Positions 42,800 to 54,813 of a DNA stretch of 64,000 bases are shown in pieces; the stretch's first letter is position 1; the number at the start of each line of letters is the position of its first letter. The translations under genes were made by a program, and so were the position numbers. This DNA comes from a virus (Duplodnaviria; Heunggongvirae; Uroviricota; Caudoviricetes). The stretch lies in the IMG/VR virus record IMGVR_UViG_3300015615_000629, positions 64,001-128,000 of that record; one strand, 5' to 3'. The notes under the pieces are model-generated. The model searched no databases. It had not been told where the DNA came from and saw nothing but the letters and a program-made list of their open reading frames with translations.

Positions 42800-44062
42800 T
42801 TAAGCCCTTTTGTAACGCTTTTTGAAGAAAGCCTTTGCCTCTTCCATATGAGAAAGTCGAGTCGCCCATGCTCTTTTCGCCACCATAACACACATCATGA
42901 ACATCTGACGACTTGGGAAATCTCCAACGCCTGTAACAACCCCATCAGATATCCAAAGCCTCGGATGCTGCTGCTTGGCTAACCATTTTAAAGCTGGGTA
43001 ATCCACGACATTGGAACCGCCAGTTGTGTTTCTCCAATTTTTAACACATCTGCCGTTCTTGGCGATAATTTGCAAGGTTCCTGACTTGGTTTGACCGCTA
43101 TAAGTTGCAATCGTACAACCAGGAGCCAAACGCAGAACTTCGGCAATATCGTAGGAACTTAAAGACATACTTCCACTTACGTCAACTAATACTGTGCCGC
43201 CCTGATGGCGTTTTTTATAGCCAAATATTTTTCCGTCTATGAAATATCTGTTTAAATAACGTGGCAATGTCCCTTCGTCGTTGGCACGCCATTTTCTAGA
43301 AAATTTAGAAGGCGGCATAGTCGCAGAAATATCTTTATGTAATTTAATTTTCATTTCCCCAGGTGGAGCATAACCTTTTCCACCATGTTTAAATTGCATT
43401 TTCATCTGCTCGTCTAAATAACTTGACCCCATTTTAGACTTTTCCGAAGGACTAAGCGGACATTTTCCCTCGCCTTTAATGGCATCTAAAAATTCTTCGT
43501 AAGACATTTCATAGAAGAACTCAACATCGCCAGTCTCATCCGGTTCTTCATCCGCAAAGCCGGAAGTACGAAGAAATAAATCTTCCTTCCGAAAAAATCC
43601 CAATGTCTTCGCACAATCAATCGATGTCTCAATTACTGGGTTTTCTGCAATCCTGTTCAATAAATGACGACCAGTGGCCTTGTACCCATCCACAAAACCA
43701 TAAATTACATCATTGAGAGAATCGTGCTTCGATGCAAGTAATTGCTTCCCTTTCTCGGTAATATCTTCAGTAGTTAAATTAATCCCTAATTTACGTAACT
43801 TGTACGTAATCCTGGCTTGTTCGCAAGCTAATAATGCCTGTGGATCAACGCCGTTGTCGGCGGCTAAATTCTGAATTTCTTCGGAATCATAACCCCAAAG
43901 CATGGAACCCATGACCAGCATCCGGCTGCGGAAAGCAGCCGGATGCGTACAAGCGGTTAATTTGCCATTCTTATAAAAATTCCTGTGTAGACCAGGAGAA
44001 TCGGCGGAAACAATCTCTAAATTCTCATCGGAAATTGCTTCAACTAAAGGATAAACCTTCAT
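42800..44062 (-). CDS. VWA (MIDAS) domain partner protein 1
   Basis: TVLVDVSGSMS (DxSxS), GGSNVVD, WISDG. Confidence 0.75.
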   Translation of the reverse strand: MKVYPLVEAISDENLEIVSADSPGLHRNFYKNGKLTACTHPAAFRSRMLVMGSMLWGYDSEEIQNLAADNGVDPQALLACEQARITYKLRKLGINLTTEDITEKGKQLLASKHDSLNDVIYGFVDGYKATGRHLLNRIAENPVIETSIDCAKTLGFFRKEDLFLRTSGFADEEPDETGDVEFFYEMSYEEFLDAIKGEGKCPLSPSEKSKMGSSYLDEQMKMQFKHGGKGYAPPGEMKIKLHKDISATMPPSKFSRKWRANDEGTLPRYLNRYFIDGKIFGYKKRHQGGTVLVDVSGSMSLSSYDIAEVLRLAPGCTIATYSGQTKSGTLQIIAKNGRCVKNWRNTTGGSNVVDYPALKWLAKQQHPRLWISDGVVTGVGDFPSRQMFMMCVMVAKRAWATRLSHMEEAKAFFKKRYKRA

Positions 44063-45292
44063 TTAAACTCTCTTGTATTTTCGAGTAAATTTCTTTTTCT
44101 TTTTGACCGGAGCAACTGCTTTTGGAGAGTAAATCGGCACACCAGCAGTGCTCAGTCGCAGACCCATACTTGTAATCTTTGCATGAACCTCTGCCAGGGC
44201 AGGTACATTGAAATTACGAATACAAAGAAGTTTCTCCGCAGTCCATCCAACTAAATGCCCAACAGTGGTAATGCCTTCGCCCTCTAGGCAATTGGTTGCT
44301 CTTACCGATAGTCCCAAGTCGGATATGCTGATATTTAATTTATCAGCAGTAGGTTTCTTCGCAGGCGTTTTTGACCGCCCGCCATCAATGGAAACTTTCG
44401 CTCCACATCTTTCCAATTCAGCCTTAATCCCATTGGCACGATCCTCAGAAATGTTTTCCACAAATCTGTTAGGGAGATTTTCAACCAAATCTTTGGTCTC
44501 TTTCAGCCCAAGACCAGTCATCGCCCGTACATACTTAATTACCTTTATCTTATCAGAACCAAAAGATTCCAAGATAACAGAAACAGATGCCGACCCTACA
44601 GAAACTTTGGCACCCCGCAATTTAAACGCCGCCATTACATCCTTATAGCCAGCACCAAAAATGGCTCGTGCTGCCATTTCATCCCCAACTTCCGGACGTA
44701 ATAAAGCAAATTCCTTCCAAGACCTTACAGAAATTCGCCTTTCTTCATCTTTAACCAAACCGGTTCTTTTCGCTAACTCCCGAATGTCATCAGGCAAAGC
44801 CTTCAAAGCACCTGGAGCAACCTCGTCCACATGAATCGTTACAGGAAACCTATCCCTTAATGCAGCGTTCAAATCACTAGGCTCGCCGTTCATTGTCGCT
44901 ACACAATGAAATCCAGGCAAAGGCTTAACCATTTCTCCGCTAGGTAAAGTAATATTGGCGATATCCATATCGTCCAATATGCCCAAGAGAAACGTCTGAG
45001 CGTCCCCAGAGGCTTTCTCCAACTCGTTCAACACAAGTCTAGTGCCTTTTCTCCAAGCGGAGACGCATGGACCGTCCATCCATACGTATTCCCCGCCCTT
45101 TAAACCAAAATGACCCCTTAATTCCGCAGCAGGGGTATCTTCCGTTAAAGAGAAAGAATATACATTATCATAAGCATCTGGTTTGATGCCAAAACGCTTG
45201 CCAGCATAACTCTTACCAGTACCAGATGGACCGTAAAGCAAAACGCGGTCAGTTTTAGTTAAAACTTTAGAAACTACATCCCAACAGCTCAT
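44063..45292 (-). CDS. MoxR/AAA_5 ATPase fused to ribosomal L7/L12 CTD and RNAP alpha-CTD
   Basis: GPSGTGKS, ATMN, ALRDRF; KIKVIKYVRAMTGLGLKETKDLVE...AELERCGAKV (L7/L12); DLGLSVRATNCLEGEGITTV (alpha-CTD). Confidence 0.85.
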   Translation of the reverse strand: MSCWDVVSKVLTKTDRVLLYGPSGTGKSYAGKRFGIKPDAYDNVYSFSLTEDTPAAELRGHFGLKGGEYVWMDGPCVSAWRKGTRLVLNELEKASGDAQTFLLGILDDMDIANITLPSGEMVKPLPGFHCVATMNGEPSDLNAALRDRFPVTIHVDEVAPGALKALPDDIRELAKRTGLVKDEERRISVRSWKEFALLRPEVGDEMAARAIFGAGYKDVMAAFKLRGAKVSVGSASVSVILESFGSDKIKVIKYVRAMTGLGLKETKDLVENLPNRFVENISEDRANGIKAELERCGAKVSIDGGRSKTPAKKPTADKLNISISDLGLSVRATNCLEGEGITTVGHLVGWTAEKLLCIRNFNVPALAEVHAKITSMGLRLSTAGVPIYSPKAVAPVKKKKKFTRKYKRV

Positions 45293-46662
45293 GCTGATTT
45301 TATCCTTTTGAAGAGATTAAAAGCTTCTTTTACGTAAGGAACGCGAATAATACTGTTTCTTTTAACGACATCGAAACACATCATGGTCAACAATGGAAAA
45401 GCACTATCGCCAACTCCTGTGACAATTCCATCCGATACCCATATTCTAGGGCCGGGCATTTTAGACAACCATATGAGAGCGGGATAATCCACTATATTGC
45501 CGCCTTGTTTATAACTTAATTTGGAAGAATACGTTCCATTCTCTGCTAATATCGACAACCTTCCGCTTGACGATTCACCAGAATAGGCCGCCACCGTGCA
45601 GCCAGGAGCAGATTCAGTTATCTTTATTATTTCATCTATCGACAAACCCATACTGCTACTGGTGTCGATTAATACCGTTCCGCCCTGTGCCTTTCTTTTA
45701 ACACCAAAAATCTTACCATCAACAAAGTATCTGTTTAAATATCTCGGATGAGTACCTTCTTCGGCACTTGCCCATTTTTTAGCCTTTTGACCATTTAAAC
45801 GCCTATCCATAGTTTCTTTGCAGATAGACATATTTCCATATGAAAATCCTCCATGATGTACTTTTGACCCCTTATATTGTCCCTCAAAATGATTGCCGTA
45901 GCGGCTGCTATTTAATTCAGCCATCCCCTTCTCAAACGCTTCTTTTTCGTGAGAATTTGAGAATTTAGAATTGTTTTTCAAAAACTCTTCAAAATTGCTG
46001 GTTTCTTCAAGTTCGTCTTTAACTCTTTCCAAAATATCGTGATCTTCCGCCATAGAAGAAGCATCCTTTGCTCCCGTGCAAGTTCCAGCCGGCCGCTTAG
46101 ACGGCTTACCACCACTATCACTACGATCAGAAGATGGCTTGCCCTTCGCTTCCGAGGATTCACCCGGCTTCGGCGTAGACGGATGCTTTATTATTTCTTG
46201 AACATATCTACAAGCCTCTAACAAACAATCTACATTTCCAGACGCCGCAGAAACCATCTCTTTAAATTTAGTAACTACCGGTTCTGTGCTTTCGGCTTCA
46301 AACGCAGAGGAAATAGCAGTTATTAATGGGTTATCGTCAAAACGTCTTGTGGCAGGACATAATTCTATTTCTGTCCTTTTCAAATGATAACCAATTCTAC
46401 CAATCTCACACGCTTCTAAAATTAAAGGATTTAGGGAAAAATTGGTCGCCATATTACGGATTTCTTCATCGGATAATCCCCACTTTATCCGACCTAACGC
46501 AATTATGCGGTTTCGGCGAGCCGATTCCTTCAAATCAAGATTTAAAACCTTCTTCTCAAAATCTAAACTTTCCTTCCAGGGCGTATGATTGATTTCCCAG
46601 CCCTGTCCAAGCAGACCTTCAAACGATTCCACCAATGGGAATATCTTATCGTGCCTCAACAT
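45289..46662 (-). CDS. VWA (MIDAS) domain partner protein 2
   Basis: TVLIDTSSSMG, GGNIVDYPAL, WVSDG. Paralogue of 42800-44062. Confidence 0.75.
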   Translation of the reverse strand: MLRHDKIFPLVESFEGLLGQGWEINHTPWKESLDFEKKVLNLDLKESARRNRIIALGRIKWGLSDEEIRNMATNFSLNPLILEACEIGRIGYHLKRTEIELCPATRRFDDNPLITAISSAFEAESTEPVVTKFKEMVSAASGNVDCLLEACRYVQEIIKHPSTPKPGESSEAKGKPSSDRSDSGGKPSKRPAGTCTGAKDASSMAEDHDILERVKDELEETSNFEEFLKNNSKFSNSHEKEAFEKGMAELNSSRYGNHFEGQYKGSKVHHGGFSYGNMSICKETMDRRLNGQKAKKWASAEEGTHPRYLNRYFVDGKIFGVKRKAQGGTVLIDTSSSMGLSIDEIIKITESAPGCTVAAYSGESSSGRLSILAENGTYSSKLSYKQGGNIVDYPALIWLSKMPGPRIWVSDGIVTGVGDSAFPLLTMMCFDVVKRNSIIRVPYVKEAFNLFKRIKSA

Positions 46663-46710: not shown

Positions 46711-47517
46711 TTAAGATTTAGAGATATTAAGTGCTGCCAATACTTCCGAATAACGGCTTCCAAAAACCGCTTTGGCAGCAAGAGTAGGATTATGTTCTTC
46801 TCTCAATCGAGCAAATTCATTCCAAGAACGAACGGAAATTCTCCGCTGAGCGTCTTTAACAACGCTACAATTATAAACCACATTTCTAATATCTTCCGGT
46901 AACGCCAACAGTGCGTCCGGAGCAATCCTATCAATATTAATCGCTATCGGAAAACGATCCCTTAATGCCGGATTCAAATCCACATCAGGATCGCCATTCA
47001 TTGTTGCAACACACCTAAAACCAGAATCTGGTCTTACCGTTTCACCAGTTGGCAACGTAATACTAGCAATTCCTGGATCGTCTAGAATCCCTAATAGAAA
47101 TGTCTGAGCATCCCCAGAAGCCTTTTCTAATTCATTTAATACTAATCTGGCTCCCTTACGCCAAGAGGATACGCAAGGACCGTCCATCCATACGTATTCT
47201 CCACTTTTAAGGCCGAAATGACCTCTTAACTCAGCCGCTGGAGTATCTTCGGTTAAAGAGAAAGAAAACACCCGTTCATTAAAATTGATCTTCTCACATA
47301 GTCGCCGTTCGGCCGCTATCCAAAATTCCCTATCTTGACCATCGGGGCAACCACGTTCGGCCCAGATGAGTTTTGCTTCGGCAGCAATTTGCTCCTTAGA
47401 TGGAGCAATTCCTAACCGTTTTCCAGCATAACTTTTGCCCGTTCCTGAAGGACCATAGAGCAAAATGCGGTCAGCAGACGGCAACACCTGTTCAACTATC
47501 GACCAGCAGTCTTCCAT
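46711..47517 (-). CDS. MoxR/AAA_5 ATPase with inserted DUF2934-like domain
   Basis: GPSGTGKS followed by EQIAAEAKLIWAERGCPDGQDREFWIAAERRL. Paralogue of 44063-45292. Confidence 0.8.
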   Translation of the reverse strand: MEDCWSIVEQVLPSADRILLYGPSGTGKSYAGKRLGIAPSKEQIAAEAKLIWAERGCPDGQDREFWIAAERRLCEKINFNERVFSFSLTEDTPAAELRGHFGLKSGEYVWMDGPCVSSWRKGARLVLNELEKASGDAQTFLLGILDDPGIASITLPTGETVRPDSGFRCVATMNGDPDVDLNPALRDRFPIAINIDRIAPDALLALPEDIRNVVYNCSVVKDAQRRISVRSWNEFARLREEHNPTLAAKAVFGSRYSEVLAALNISKS

Positions 47518-48047: not shown

Positions 48048-48199
48048 AGATCACTAATTTTTTACTTGCCTATGCTACCATGTTTTCAGTAGCTGTAGGA
48101 ACTATTCTTATCGTAAACTGTTTTGCCAATGGATACCTTTATGGAACACCATTGGGAATAGGACTAAGTATACTGTCCTTAAAACTGTTCCTATTTGAA

Positions 48200-48267
48200 T
48201 GACCCTACGGGGATTCACGACTTCCAGATTGAGGGTCTGGCGTCCTCACCCACTAGACGATAGGGCC
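48200..48267 (-). pseudogene. Degenerate tRNA-Glu(CTC) lacking the T-arm 5' strand
   Basis: GGCCCTA...TAGGGTCA acceptor, CCAGA-CCCTCAA-TCTGG anticodon arm, no GGTTC. Confidence 0.7.
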
Positions 48268-48495
48268 TAACTTTAACAATTCTTCCTTCAAACTTGCCTC
48301 TGTCCTATGCTCTTGTGAATATTCAGCAAGTAAAATGTCAATTTGATAAACCAGTTTTTCCGCATCTGGTTCATTATACTTTTCTATATCCCAAGCAATA
48401 GGAGACAACCACTCATCAAGAGATTCTAAAGATATTTGTCCATCGATATAACTATCGACTTTTGCATGAATCTCTTTCAAAATACTCATTACCAA
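48253..48495 (-). CDS. Hypothetical protein ending inside the tRNA-Glu pseudogene
   Basis: 80 aa ORF. Confidence 0.55.
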   Translation of the reverse strand: MVMSILKEIHAKVDSYIDGQISLESLDEWLSPIAWDIEKYNEPDAEKLVYQIDILLAEYSQEHRTEASLKEELLKLGPIV

Positions 48496-49840: not shown

Positions 49841-49841
49841 G

Positions 49842-49915
49842 TGACCCTACGGGGAGTTGAACCCGCGATTTCCAGCGTGAGAAGCTGGCGTCCTGAGCCA
49901 TTAGACGATAGGGCC
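49842..49915 (-). tRNA. tRNA-Glu(CTC)
   Basis: Cloverleaf; CCAGC-TTCTCAC-GCTGG; GGTTCAACT T-loop. Confidence 0.9.
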
Positions 49916-50287
49916 TTAATGAAATTCCACATTTTCGTTTTTGCTGTATGCGTCTCTTAAACCATTAATAAACTTTACCGCACTATCATAAACCCAACCA
50001 TGCGGGTGCCAGTAATCCCCTTCCTCTGTCTTTAATTCTTCAAGAATAGATTCTAAATCTTCAGCAATTTCAATTCCATCTTCGGGCGATATCTCTCCAT
50101 CACAGTCAGAGTGATGTAAGAGTTTGTTCAAGCCTCTACTTGGAACTTCATCCCAAGGAATCCCGTTTTCACAATATCCTTCCATTGCCTTTAAATTGAT
50201 ACCTATTTTCTCGGCAATAGTTTTACGCCAAGTCATGAAACTAGAATATGAGCCGTGCCAACAATCATGTGTTGTGTCTAAGCCCAC
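49916..50287 (-). CDS. Conserved hypothetical phage protein
   Basis: MGLD...SYS.F..WR...HSDCDG.I. Confidence 0.6.
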   Translation of the reverse strand: MGLDTTHDCWHGSYSSFMTWRKTIAEKIGINLKAMEGYCENGIPWDEVPSRGLNKLLHHSDCDGEISPEDGIEIAEDLESILEELKTEEGDYWHPHGWVYDSAVKFINGLRDAYSKNENVEFH

Positions 50288-50771
50288 GGGTTATCCTTTA
50301 ATTCTGATATTGTATTTTAGCAAGTTCTCTTCTTAAGCCAACAAATATCTCACATCTCATATCAATCAGAACAATAAAAAGTTCGTCTGAACTATTATCG
50401 GCGGCATACATGGCCGCTCGGCAAAATTTGCCTCTGTTGAGCAAATTGTAAAAATGATCAAGGCGTTTCTTGGTGTCGTCTAAACCCACGGGTAGTACCA
50501 ATTTAATCGAGATTTAGCGATGTTGTAAGCGGCTTGAGCAACCGTTGCTTTTCCTCTGCGACGTTTAATTTTCAGAAATTCTCGAAATAGAATTCCCTGT
50601 TTTCGCCTTCTTTCGGCCATTCGCTTGTTCATGCCGATGCCTGTCCAGTCACACGAAGGTATTCAACTATCTCGTCAAATTCTTCGGCAGTAAATGCCTC
50701 TTTTTCAAGTTTTGCCCATTCCTCGTCTTCGCTTTCCATTATAGTCTAAAACTCCGAATATTTCAAGCAAG

Positions 50772-50842
50772 TGGACTCACTGGGAATTGAACCCAGATTT
50801 TTAGACTGCCAGCCTAATGTCTTCCCGTTTGACGATGAGCCC
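50772..50842 (-). tRNA. tRNA-Ala(GGC)
   Basis: G3:U70; TTAGG-CTGGCAG-TCTAA. Confidence 0.85.
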
Positions 50843-50856
50843 ATAAAACTTTAAAA

Positions 50857-50927
50857 TCAAGGTAGAAGAAATCGAATCTTCGCTTTCGGCTCCCCGAACC
50901 GACGGACTACCATTATCCCATACCCTG
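50857..50927 (-). tRNA. tRNA-Pro(GGG)
   Basis: C1-G72, A73; TCGGT-TCGGGGA-GCCGA (C33 is unusual). Confidence 0.75.
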
Positions 50928-50931
50928 GAAG

Positions 50932-51003
50932 TAGACAGTACAGGGTTTGAACCTGTGACCTTTTCCGTGTCGAGGAAACGCTCTACCACTGAGCTAACTG
51001 TCT
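50932..51003 (-). tRNA. tRNA-Val(GAC)
   Basis: TTTCC-TCGACAC-GGAAA; GGTTCAAAC. Confidence 0.85.
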
Positions 51004-51020
51004 ATAATCTATTTTTAAAG

Positions 51021-51094
51021 TGCGGCTGCGGAGAATTGAACTCCGTCTTCGAACTTGGCAGAATCGCGTGCGAAAACCACTACACTACAGCCGC
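51021..51094 (-). tRNA. tRNA-Gly(GCC)
   Basis: GCGGCTG/CAGCCGC; CGATT-CTGCCAA-GTTCG. Confidence 0.85.
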
Positions 51095-51098
51095 AAAA

Positions 51099-51170
51099 TG
51101 ACCCGTGAGGGAGTCGAACCCTCCTCTGCTGCTTGAAAAACAGCCATCCTGACCGCTAAACGAACGGGCC
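51099..51170 (-). tRNA. tRNA-Glu(TTC)
   Basis: GCTGT-TTTTCAA-GCAGC; GGTTCGACT. Confidence 0.9.
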
Positions 51171-51812
51171 TTGTGTTAATTTCTGAATTTCTTCAATTTT
51201 ATCTCGTGGCGTTAATGCTCTTGTGCAATAAATCCATTCTCCGTCTACTAATTTTAAATGTCTAATTATGTGACAGGATGCACAAACTATTTCCAAATTC
51301 TCTTCACAATTATTCAAATTATTGCCATCAATATGATGAATAAAAAGAAGAAATTTAGCTGTTTCGCCACAACCAACGCATCCTTTTGTTTCTTCGTCCG
51401 ATAATCTTTCTTTTTTTATTCTTTTTGCCAGTTGAGATTTTTCTGCTGTCCCGTAATGTGGTGGCATTATTTCTTTAATACCACCAATACGTTGAGCCAT
51501 ATCCTTGCATTTTCTAGAACAGAATCTAAATCCGGATTTTGAATTTTTAAATTTACAATCGAGCTTTTCGAATTCATCTTTACAATAATCGCAAACTAAT
51601 ATTGTTCTACGTTGTCTTCCTTTATCTGCACATTGCTTACTACAAAATCTTCTTTTACCAGTTAGAATATCTTTTGCTCTAGCCGAAAATAATGTGCCGC
51701 AACCTTCGCACTTTTTTTCCAAACCTTTACGTCTTCTGCCGCCTTCTTCGATAATCCAAATTTCCATTTTATCCTCCACATTACAAGAGTGTGGAGGATA
51801 AAATATTTGCAA
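51156..51812 (-). CDS. HNH homing endonuclease with Zn-finger repeats inside the tRNA array
   Basis: C..C..FCS..C twice; IHHIDGNNLNN...NL...CASCH. Confidence 0.85.
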   Translation of the reverse strand: MQIFYPPHSCNVEDKMEIWIIEEGGRRRKGLEKKCEGCGTLFSARAKDILTGKRRFCSKQCADKGRQRRTILVCDYCKDEFEKLDCKFKNSKSGFRFCSRKCKDMAQRIGGIKEIMPPHYGTAEKSQLAKRIKKERLSDEETKGCVGCGETAKFLLFIHHIDGNNLNNCEENLEIVCASCHIIRHLKLVDGEWIYCTRALTPRDKIEEIQKLTQGPFV

Positions 51813-51840
51813 TGCAAATTAATATTTTCCCAAATTTAAG

Positions 51841-51911
51841 TCCTCCCTGAAGGAGTCGAGCCTTCTACGCTTGCTTGTAATGCAAGAATGATTCCGTTTC
51901 ACCAAGGGAGG
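51841..51911 (-). tRNA. tRNA-Val(TAC), atypical body
   Basis: CCTCCCT/AGGGAGG-A; CTTGC-ATTACAA-GCAAG; T-loop CTCGACT. Confidence 0.7.
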
Positions 51912-51914
51912 AAG

Positions 51915-51985
51915 TGGACCCAGAGAGAATCAAACTCTCGCTTTCGGATTGCAAAACCGACGTACTCTCATTATACTATGAGCCC
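51915..51985 (-). tRNA. tRNA-Ala(TGC)
   Basis: G3:U70; TCGGT-TTTGCAA-TCCGA. Confidence 0.8.
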
Positions 51986-52017
51986 AAATTTAACTTCAAA
52001 ATTTTCAAAGAACAAAG

Positions 52018-52088
52018 TAGCCCGTAGGAGAATCGAACTCCTGTTGAAGCGATGAAAGCGCCTTCGCCTACCACTAGCGGAACGGGCC
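52018..52088 (-). tRNA. tRNA-Glu(TTC)
   Basis: AGGCG-CTTTCAT-CGCTT; AGTTCGATT. Confidence 0.85.
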
Positions 52089-52092
52089 AAAA

Positions 52093-52163
52093 TAGCGACA
52101 AGTGGAATTGAACCACTATAGGGAGCGTATGAAACTCCTGCACTACCGTTGTGCTATGTCGCC
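52093..52163 (-). tRNA. tRNA-Met/Ile2(CAT)
   Basis: GGAGT-TTCATAC-GCTCC; GGTTCAATT. Confidence 0.85.
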
Positions 52164-52424
52164 ATCAAAAACTATTCAACTAAATCGTTGCTATTCATCC
52201 TCTCTGTAAGAGTTTCTAACAGTTTTGGATTTCCAATTAACTTTTTCAACATTTGAACATCCGCATTGCAATCTGCTAAACGGCTTTCAAGTTGTTCAAG
52301 CAGTCGCAACACAAAATCGTTAGCGTCCATTTTCGTATCCTTCTAGAGAAGTGAAACCCACTACCCTATAGGGACACAAAACAGGCTGCTAGCCGCCACA
52401 ATTCCGTGAATTTTCTCCAAAAAG

Positions 52425-52498
52425 TCGGAATGGACGAATTCGAATCGTCGGCCTCTCGCTCCCGAAGCGAGCGCTCTTCCAAACTGAGCTACATTCCG
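52425..52498 (-). tRNA. tRNA-Pro(CGG)
   Basis: CGGAATG/CATTCCG-A; CTCGC-TTCGGGA-GCGAG. Confidence 0.9.
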
Positions 52499-52506
52499 AT
52501 AACTAA

Positions 52507-52577
52507 TCAAGGTAGTTGGAATCGAACCAACGCCCCGAGCTTCCAAAACTCGTAGACTACCACTATCCCATACCCTG
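52507..52577 (-). tRNA. tRNA-Pro(TGG), first tRNA of the array
   Basis: CGAGT-TTTGGAA-GCTCG; GGTTCGATT. Confidence 0.9.
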
Positions 52578-52585
52578 TAAAAACG

Positions 52586-52620
52586 AAAAAACCCGCATCA
52601 GGTTTTATCCTGAGCGGGTT
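52586..52620 (-). terminator. Attenuator intrinsic terminator directly upstream of the tRNA array
   Basis: AACCCGC-TCAGG-ATAAAA-CCTGA-T-GCGGGTT followed by TTTTCGTTTTT. Confidence 0.85.
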
Positions 52621-52685
52621 CCAGTATTAACTTTGAACCAAACTCAGGATTACTTTCCTGAGTTGGTGATTACCAGCAGGAAAGC
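52607..52685 (-). promoter_or_regulatory. Alternative hairpins (1:2, 2:3, 3:4 antiterminator) of the tRNA-array attenuator
   Basis: GCTTTCCTG/CAGGAAAGT; AACTCAGGA/TCCTGAGTT; ATCCTGAG..GGTTC/GAACC..CTCAGGAT. Confidence 0.75.
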
Positions 52686-52689
52686 GCGG

Positions 52690-52761
52690 TTAGGCTGCGG
52701 GGGCTGGACGTTCGCCAGCCGGCATACCTTCGACCATCGCTTCCACTACTGCTAATTTCAT
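52690..52761 (-). CDS. Leader peptide MKLAVVEAMVEGMPAGERPAPAA of the tRNA array
   Basis: ATG with SD AGAAGGA, 23 codons, then TAA. Twenty codons are Ala/Val/Glu/Met/Gly/Pro, the families in the array. Confidence 0.8.
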   Translation of the reverse strand: MKLAVVEAMVEGMPAGERPAPAA

Positions 52762-52864
52762 TGTATTGTTCCTTCTTCTCTTATCTATGCACGTTGCACG
52801 GATTTTTCACTACTACGTAATTGTGCCTCAACCTACGTGTTCTACGCAGGTCGTCACTTCCACC

Positions 52865-52892
52865 AGTTTAGCACGATTTTTTCGATTGTCAA
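52865..52892 (-). promoter_or_regulatory. sigma70-type promoter of the leader/tRNA array
   Basis: TTGACA-N16-TAAACT with extended -10 (GTGC). Confidence 0.75.
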
Positions 52893-53448: not shown

Positions 53449-53889
53449 TTAGTATGCGTGCGGGCCAAGCAAATCGAAACTACGTATTTGTCCCTTCTTT
53501 AAACAAGTCTCAAATACATCGATATAACGATTTCGATATCGAACATCAACCATGTAAAAGTGACTTGTAAAAGAAGTTGTCCAAAAACGATCTAAAACTT
53601 TATCGAAAAGAATCTTTTCTTTATTGTCGCCTTCTGATACGGATTCGTCGTAGACGAAATTTCTAAGACAAACTTTTCCGAATTGTTCGATATTTGGCAA
53701 CAGGGGCACACGTTCACTACTTGGCAGCCTAACCCTTAAATCACGGAAGGAGAGAATGGCAGTCTCTCCATTTTCAAAAAACCCGCTATAACCCAATTCA
53801 AATACTAAATCAGGAAAAGCCACAAAATATGGCTTTTCCTGATAAAGAATGGTTCGGTTTCTGCCTTTAACTAAGCGAAGTGTTAACAT
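53449..53889 (-). CDS. Prokaryotic E2-like paralogue 5
   Basis: RTI, FPDLVF, PLLPNIEQFGKVCL, FWTTSFTSH. Confidence 0.65.
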   Translation of the reverse strand: MLTLRLVKGRNRTILYQEKPYFVAFPDLVFELGYSGFFENGETAILSFRDLRVRLPSSERVPLLPNIEQFGKVCLRNFVYDESVSEGDNKEKILFDKVLDRFWTTSFTSHFYMVDVRYRNRYIDVFETCLKKGQIRSFDLLGPHAY

Positions 53890-54345: not shown

Positions 54346-54813
54346 TTATCGAGAGTAATCAACATAAAAGTGACAATTCCTGGGAATTGAGCGTACTTTG
54401 TTTTGTTTAAGGTTATGTTCGAACAAGTCGATGTAAACATCTCTGTATTGTGGTTGAACTATAAAAAAGTGATTTGTAAACTCATTTAACCAAAATTTGT
54501 GTAATACAACGTCAAATAGGATGTCAAGAGTCCCGCCAAAAAGTGGATTTATGGCTCCCAAGCAAACTCGTCCGTCAAATTCGATATTTGGCAATAGTGG
54601 AAATCTGGTGAAATCGTCGGCTAGACAAACATTTAATCCGAAATACTCGTATGGAATATAATCATCAGAGTATTTGAGGATAAATCTTAGAGCGGGCAAA
54701 TTCACAAAATACGGTTTTCCGAGGTAGAAAATGGTTCTACCGTGGGCTTTTATGACACGTTCGACAGATTTGCTCATCCAAGACATTCTAGGCAAATAGG
54801 GCTCAAACGTCAA
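54346..54813 (-). CDS. Prokaryotic E2-like paralogue 6
   Basis: RTI, LPALRF, PLLPNIEFDGRVCLG, FWLNEFTNH. Confidence 0.65.
   Translation of the reverse strand: MTFEPYLPRMSWMSKSVERVIKAHGRTIFYLGKPYFVNLPALRFILKYSDDYIPYEYFGLNVCLADDFTRFPLLPNIEFDGRVCLGAINPLFGGTLDILFDVVLHKFWLNEFTNHFFIVQPQYRDVYIDLFEHNLKQNKVRSIPRNCHFYVDYSR

Follow-up and report, generated by a model that had tools for sequence, protein, structure and literature searches.

The block of eleven tRNA genes on the minus strand of this phage genome is very probably gated by a ribosome-mediated attenuator of the his type, in which six alternately pairing RNA segments, modelled from predicted folds, would release tRNAs for Pro, Met, Glu, Ala, Val and Gly when decoding of a short leader open reading frame (ORF) is slow. 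The virus record is 572,167 bases long, with direct terminal repeats and a Gp23-type major capsid gene, and the nearest named record is that of an uncultured 595-kb phage (LR756511.1), with 70% capsid identity. The window, by which we mean the whole 64-kb stretch of DNA that was analysed, is positions 64,001-128,000 of the record. The attenuator lies on its minus strand, flanked by a sigma70-like promoter and the tRNA block. Read from sequence features only, a promoter-like site is followed by a short ORF with a ribosome-binding site, all upstream of the tRNA genes. The parts of this leader, which we call leader A, are as follows.

52865..52892, minus strand: sigma70-type promoter-like site, TTGACA-16-TAAACT, with TG ahead of the -10 hexamer (10/12 match)
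52830..52852, minus strand: 5' hairpin upstream of the leader ORF, outside the switch pairing in every fold
52770..52776, minus strand: Shine-Dalgarno-like AGAAGGA in the sequence, 8 nt 5' of the ATG
52690..52761, minus strand: 23-codon leader ORF, with its stop TAA at 52692-52690
52733..52756, minus strand: segment 0 (his 'A'), inside the ORF at codons 2-10, predicted to pair with segment 1 (52690-52669) when untranslated
52669..52690, minus strand: segment 1 (his 'B'), core 52685-52677 plus the inner TGGT
52652..52667, minus strand: segment 2 (his 'C'), partner of segment 1 (ON) or 3 (OFF)
52635..52650, minus strand: segment 3 (his 'D'), partner of segment 2 (OFF) or 4 (antiterminator, ON)
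52607..52621, minus strand: segment 4 (his 'E'), terminator 5' arm
52590..52602, minus strand: segment 5 (his 'F'), terminator 3' arm
52578..52591, minus strand: U-tract of the intrinsic terminator, ending 1 nt before the first tRNA

A first-pass annotation of this DNA had described a four-segment switch. Every segment that it named is real and lies on the minus strand where it had been placed, with segment 1 beginning at the fifth base past the stop TAA; the description omitted the upstream segment inside the leader ORF (52756-52733), and the 2:3 helix is longer than it had supposed, reaching further via ACCA/TGGT (52667-52637). Both of the helices claimed for the ON state, 1:2 with its inner TGGT/ACCA stem and the 3:4 antiterminator, are present in the MFE structure of 52586-52692 (-44.2 kcal/mol, z -7.2, 0/200 shuffles). 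The centroid of the same stretch is 2:3 plus the terminator, giving two near-equal states. The helix energies are -15.9 kcal/mol for 1:2, -15.7 for 2:3, -22.0 for 3:4 and -18.9 for the 12-bp terminator hairpin, and the short motifs CCUG/CAGG and UGGU/ACCA alternate in register along the leader.

The codons of leader A match the genes that it precedes. No fewer than 19 of the 22 stand for an amino acid carried by a downstream tRNA (Ala, Val, Glu, Met, Gly or Pro), against a genome background of 0.31 (P 1.2e-7), and for this match the leader ranks first among 2471 short ORFs, at 0.86, the next being 0.61. There are 17 distinct codons among the 22, none of them for His, and an exact codon is present for 10 of 11 anticodons, the exception being Glu CUC, whose codon GAG is absent. 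Such a codon set suggests a sensor specific for tRNAs rather than a general one. The downstream features are these.

50771..52577, minus strand: controlled tRNA block (block A), 11 genes, from the window scan with Rfam and ARAGORN
52002..52014, minus strand: element within block A that we take to be boxA-like, with a second copy 3' of the first tRNA of block C (below)
51156..51812, minus strand: 218-aa ORF inserted in block A, with an HNH-like motif by eye and no Pfam match at E 1e-3
50738..50766, minus strand: strong promoter-like site (11/12) 3' of the last block tRNA, probably starting a separate unit
49841..49915, minus strand: tRNA-Glu(CUC), behind the internal promoter-like site

The genes of block A run Pro UGG, Pro CGG, CAU, Glu UUC, Ala UGC, Val UAC, Glu UUC, Gly GCC, Val GAC, Pro GGG and Ala GGC, and Rfam gave tRNA matches only over the 64-kb window. 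Since tRNA-Glu(CUC) stands behind a separate 11/12 promoter-like site, it is probably outside the controlled unit. A degenerate second copy of it at 48192-48268 (minus strand), without an ARAGORN or Rfam call, is 82% like 49866-49916 over 51 nt and has a shortened T arm. None of the 12 tRNA genes in the region encodes its 3' CCA, and several have atypical D or T loops. Leader A ends in Ala-Ala, and a tmRNA reading of it was rejected: neither ARAGORN nor Rfam gives a tmRNA in the window, and the phage tmRNA lies at genome 182,063-182,419 (minus strand), permuted according to ARAGORN and with its own promoter-like site.

Other genes of the window include an RNA ligase (PF09414; 59945-60640, minus strand), which could repair cut tRNAs, and a gene for a 409-aa protein (44063-45292, minus strand) in which a MoxR-like AAA_5 ATPase is fused with two C-terminal domains, one of ribosomal L7/L12 and one of RNA polymerase alpha. 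This fusion gene adjoins another AAA_5 gene, which also has DUF2934 (46711-47517), and two related ORFs (42800-44062 and 45289-46662) for which no Pfam family was found. The paralogous ORFs 53449-53889 and 54346-54813 have repeats in common (53800-53855 and 54682-54737), and a strong inverted repeat, 53802-53850, sits within the first of them.

How the predicted structure responds to occupation of segment 1 was followed in the RNA past the stop. When segment 1 is free the terminator has a probability of 0.002; blocking 6 nt brings this to 0.82, blocking 9 nt to 0.65 and blocking 10 or more to at least 0.98, so the terminator does not dominate regardless of segment 1, and the switching on which the earlier description depended is seen. 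A four-base in-silico change in segment 1 locks the switch OFF (terminator 0.97). When the RNA between stop and terminator was shuffled with the terminator fixed, the terminator was defeated in 11 of 2000 sequences and the full switch arose in 5 of 2000.

Ribosome positions along the ORF were scanned under two models. In the first, nothing 5' of the ribosome may pair downstream. A ribosome at codons 2-4 (+12/+15 footprints) then gives a terminator probability of 0.70-0.98; stalls that place any of codons 6-22 in the A site bring it to 0.06 or less, and once the stop codon occupies that site it is 0.65-0.99. The logic first proposed, ON when stalled and OFF at the stop, thus holds in constrained folding. 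In the second, segment 0 may pair around a single ribosome, and the switch opens (0.12-0.49) just for stalls near codons 8-13, codons 14-23 staying OFF. Sensing at codons 14-22, which include all three Pro codons, would thus need steric exclusion or a queued second ribosome; queueing has reportedly been proposed for ilvL. A ribosome on the stop codon shields just about 9 nt of the RNA beyond it, at the edge of the switch. Under OFF conditions 3:4 is favoured over 2:3 by 1-5 kcal/mol for about 12 nt of synthesis, with a barrier of 8-11 kcal/mol, and this transient preference makes a leak likely. A truncated-transcript proxy for leader A gives 0.90 both stalled and at the stop, and so no discrimination.

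Segment 0 pairs with segment 1 in a predicted hairpin that encloses the ORF (about -45 kcal/mol, z -5.2). It is stronger than in 500/500 dinucleotide shuffles and 500/500 codon-order shuffles; an OFF outcome alone is common among codon-order shuffles (140/500), and it is the strength of the hairpin that is rare. Because 0:1 forms before segment 2 is made, untranslated RNA would go to 2:3 plus the terminator, and the terminator probability of untranslated leader A is 0.995. The first-pass annotation had held that an untranslated leader would be ON and that a general shutdown of translation would therefore induce the array. Neither is supported: in the predicted folds the 5' half of the ORF sequesters segment 1, and the switch is OFF both untranslated and with a ribosome at codons 2-4 (terminator 0.70-1.00); the switch should thus ignore loss of initiation. 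The 0:1 hairpin is positioned like a pause hairpin, and a consensus pause sequence was not evident by inspection.

The same results bear on whether the leader is instead a general sensor of translation stress, in which any failure to translate it opens the array. A ribosome arrested mid-ORF does give ON whatever the cause, many simpler two-state leaders of other phages capture the terminator arm when untranslated (mean 0.69), and ilvL reacts to stalls at Pro codons that bear no relation to its operon (PMC8384417). Such a sensor is nevertheless quite improbable here, given that leader A is OFF when untranslated or with a ribosome at codons 2-4, that its 0:1 hairpin is far stronger than in shuffles and that the codons track the tRNAs of each block, which a general sensor would not need.

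The his-type attenuator that we favour would then work as follows. In an untranslated leader 0:1, 2:3 and the terminator would form, leaving the block OFF. A ribosome slowed inside the ORF at codons for the block tRNAs would break 0:1 and allow 1:2 and 3:4 to form, giving read-through into the tRNA genes. A ribosome at the stop would cover the start of segment 1, and after its release 0:1 would re-form, leading again to 2:3 plus the terminator; this OFF state after completed translation is probably somewhat leaky. The sequence anatomy, the computed folding states, the codon match and the recurrence of the design are observed; leader translation, termination in vivo, the coupling kinetics and the physiological trigger are the steps that we infer.

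The genome holds two further tRNA blocks, B and C, each with its own matched leader and terminator and with a near-identical promoter-like site upstream.

Genome 302,246: leader B, 21 codons, with terminator; block B carries Leu, Phe, Ser and an atypical Tyr
Genome 342,142: leader C, 29 codons; block C carries Thr, Cys, Lys, Ile, Arg, Gly, Trp, Asn, Asp, His and Gln

Leader C was located via the resemblance of its terminator to that of leader A. The codon match is 14/20 for leader B (P 2e-5) and 23/28 for leader C (P 7e-4), and matches of a leader to another block reach at most 4 codons. All three leaders have an ORF-enclosing hairpin, with z values of -5.2 (A), -4.5 (B) and -7.0 (C) and 0/500 shuffles each. 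The energies in leader C (1:2 -14.2, 2:3 -14.5, 3:4 -18.9, terminator -21.0) are similar to those in leader A, and all 29 aligned pairs of 2:3, 3:4 and the terminator are kept in this paralogue. Between A and C two pairs are changed on both sides and four on one side with pairing preserved, a comparison of two sequences that has no statistical power and for which pair-count shuffles are uninformative; with no orthologue of leader A, covariation rests on this one paralogue. Leaders B and C keep their terminators at equilibrium throughout, with no switching seen, and their control must therefore be kinetic.

The Tyr member of block B is an atypical tRNA-Tyr(GUA)-like RNA at genome about 299,930-300,020 (L004:5432-5520, minus strand), with acceptor, anticodon and T arms and an extra helix replacing the normal D arm; it has no ARAGORN or Rfam call, and a single Tyr codon occurs in leader B. 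The stretch at genome 342,175-342,420 (minus strand; L005:11676-11921), which follows the promoter of attenuator C and precedes the attenuator itself, holds an initiator-like tRNA-Met together with two RNAs that are tRNA-shaped but lack a normal anticodon loop. Block C itself is interspersed with genes of the NADAR-domain and OGFr_N families (L005:8895-9518 and L005:10594-11085, minus strand).

Leader B recurs ahead of Ser/Leu/Tyr blocks in the related huge phages IMGVR_UViG_3300020172_006270 and LR756511.1, its inner hairpin conserved despite changed sequence; a leader is absent at the Ser/Phe/Leu cluster of a third relative and at the main tRNA array of LR756511.1. No orthologue of leader A came up ahead of a tRNA block when viral contigs were searched with its terminator pattern, exact or relaxed; a tRNA-Pro pattern gave 0 matches, and a pattern of terminator plus tRNA in metagenomes gave unrelated matches only. 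The upstream 173-aa protein led to no relative, blastn against phage records matched the tRNA part only, and capsid-linked relatives had B-type leaders only.

A content-blind pattern, a T-run before tRNA-Pro(UGG), found 40 viral loci, many with a short ORF, terminator and tRNA block. Automatic picking of leaders mis-called some gene tails and truncated some blocks. At six two-leader loci of unrelated phages, which we picked for having two credible leaders and two of which are related to each other, each of the 12 leaders matches its own block more closely than the block next to it, and together they cover 96 of 97 block amino acids. Over 23 leaders, the terminator 5' arm is captured with a mean probability of 0.66 when stalled, against 0.21 at the stop and 0.69 when untranslated. 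Many simpler leaders thus open when untranslated, and the logic of the first-pass annotation may fit them, not leader A. Unrelated AT-rich phages carry such two-state leader/terminator units before tRNA blocks (loci L103, L107-L111, L114, L118, L120, L125, L135, L136 and L138), with the antiterminator strand at or just before the leader stop. In bacterial genomes the same pattern gave eleven loci with three or more tRNAs, and inspection found the design in none of them.

The terminator might be bypassed in some other way, by a phage or Nus antitermination protein or by leak, with the leader ORF and helices incidental or vestigial. Blocks A and C do contain a boxA-like element, the predicted transient 3:4 helix allows leak, and the main tRNA array of the relative LR756511.1 has no leader. 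The boxA-like sites, however, are downstream of the terminator, and both the switch (5/2000) and the codon match (P 1e-7) have a very low chance of arising at random, in a design that is repeated three times in this genome and again in other phages. Such a bypass we regard as highly improbable.

The attenuator that we propose has close parallels among known systems. T-box elements also tie terminator/antiterminator control to tRNA status, by binding uncharged tRNA directly; the predicted sensor here is a translated ORF, and the Rfam T-box model, with its stem I/specifier and T-box antiterminator, has no match in the window. The upstream ORFs of whiB7/wblC and vmlR similarly combine an antiterminator and terminator under ribosome stalling, and respond to ribosome-targeting drugs to control protein genes. 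Unlike those of leader A, their codons are not known to mirror a tRNA set. Among multivalent leader-peptide attenuators is pheM of pheST. In ilvL (ilvGMEDA), leuL and thrL, as here, the codons of a short ORF mirror the downstream product and stalls relieve termination (PMC8384417). These leaders, pheM included, respond to between one and three amino acids and have enzymes or a synthetase as their targets, whereas in this phage nearly the whole code is shared out over three leaders, each with its own tRNA block.

The closest likeness is to the Salmonella his attenuator, in which A:B, C:D and E:F alternate with B:C and D:E, the untranslated default is termination and expression remains low under spectinomycin (PMC4046918). 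For his, a further hairpin lying between the first one and the terminator has been proposed to cut basal read-through (PMC1183508), and the 2:3 helix of leader A would be its equivalent, within the same predicted six-segment topology and with termination when untranslated. There are differences, however. In hisL seven His codons stand in tandem and the controlled genes encode biosynthetic enzymes; leader A has about one codon per isoacceptor for six amino acids, its output is tRNA genes and it belongs to a phage genome; there is no sequence homology between them and no Rfam match. Leader A is thus predicted to work like hisL, and is not a hisL. We found no description of the attenuation of tRNA genes by a leader in the literature searched, outside which most subscription papers fell. 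Attenuation of this kind is itself classical; what is absent from that literature, and apparently new, is that a phage applies it to tRNA genes and splits the code over three leaders.

What does such a leader report? Its sampling of about one codon for each isoacceptor makes the supply of working tRNAs the most likely answer. The natural signal could instead be amino-acid starvation, that is, uncharged tRNA rather than a shortage of tRNA. An attenuator cannot distinguish the causes of slow decoding, and all characterised leader-peptide attenuators read aminoacylation (PMC1183508). Starvation is nevertheless improbable as the signal, for the leader samples nearly every isoacceptor codon once, not one codon repeatedly, and tRNA output would presumably not cure a lack of amino acid. 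For the tRNA-supply sensor, the likeliest trigger would be loss of host tRNAs, for example to host anticodon nucleases, or a tRNA-poor host. This choice follows from the one-codon-per-isoacceptor design and from the rescue of phages from tRNA-targeting defences by highly expressed phage tRNAs, as described in the accessible portion of one report (PMC11555353): tRNA-Tyr of T5 and SP15 counters retron-Eco7, tRNA-Lys counters PrrC170, and the level of expression matters for rescue. The defence-countering tRNAs in that portion are driven by a strong promoter, and a leader or attenuator does not figure in it.

It has long been asked why large phages have so many tRNA genes, and two answers are offered, codon bias and the replacement of destroyed host tRNAs. 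A feedback switch that reads the codons of the tRNAs downstream of it would mean that these genes are made on demand, and would provide a direct reporter for the trigger. It would extend leader-peptide attenuation from enzyme operons to tRNA genes, with 4-11 amino acids sensed at once. The attenuator design would also explain the grouping of tRNA genes in blocks, and leaders may predict atypical tRNAs that have been missed. We consider it about an even chance that the three his/trp-type attenuators together amount to a three-channel surveillance of host decoding, in which the matching block would be turned ON when its tRNAs are cut or scarce, an inducible counter-defence that may exist in varied forms in many large phages.
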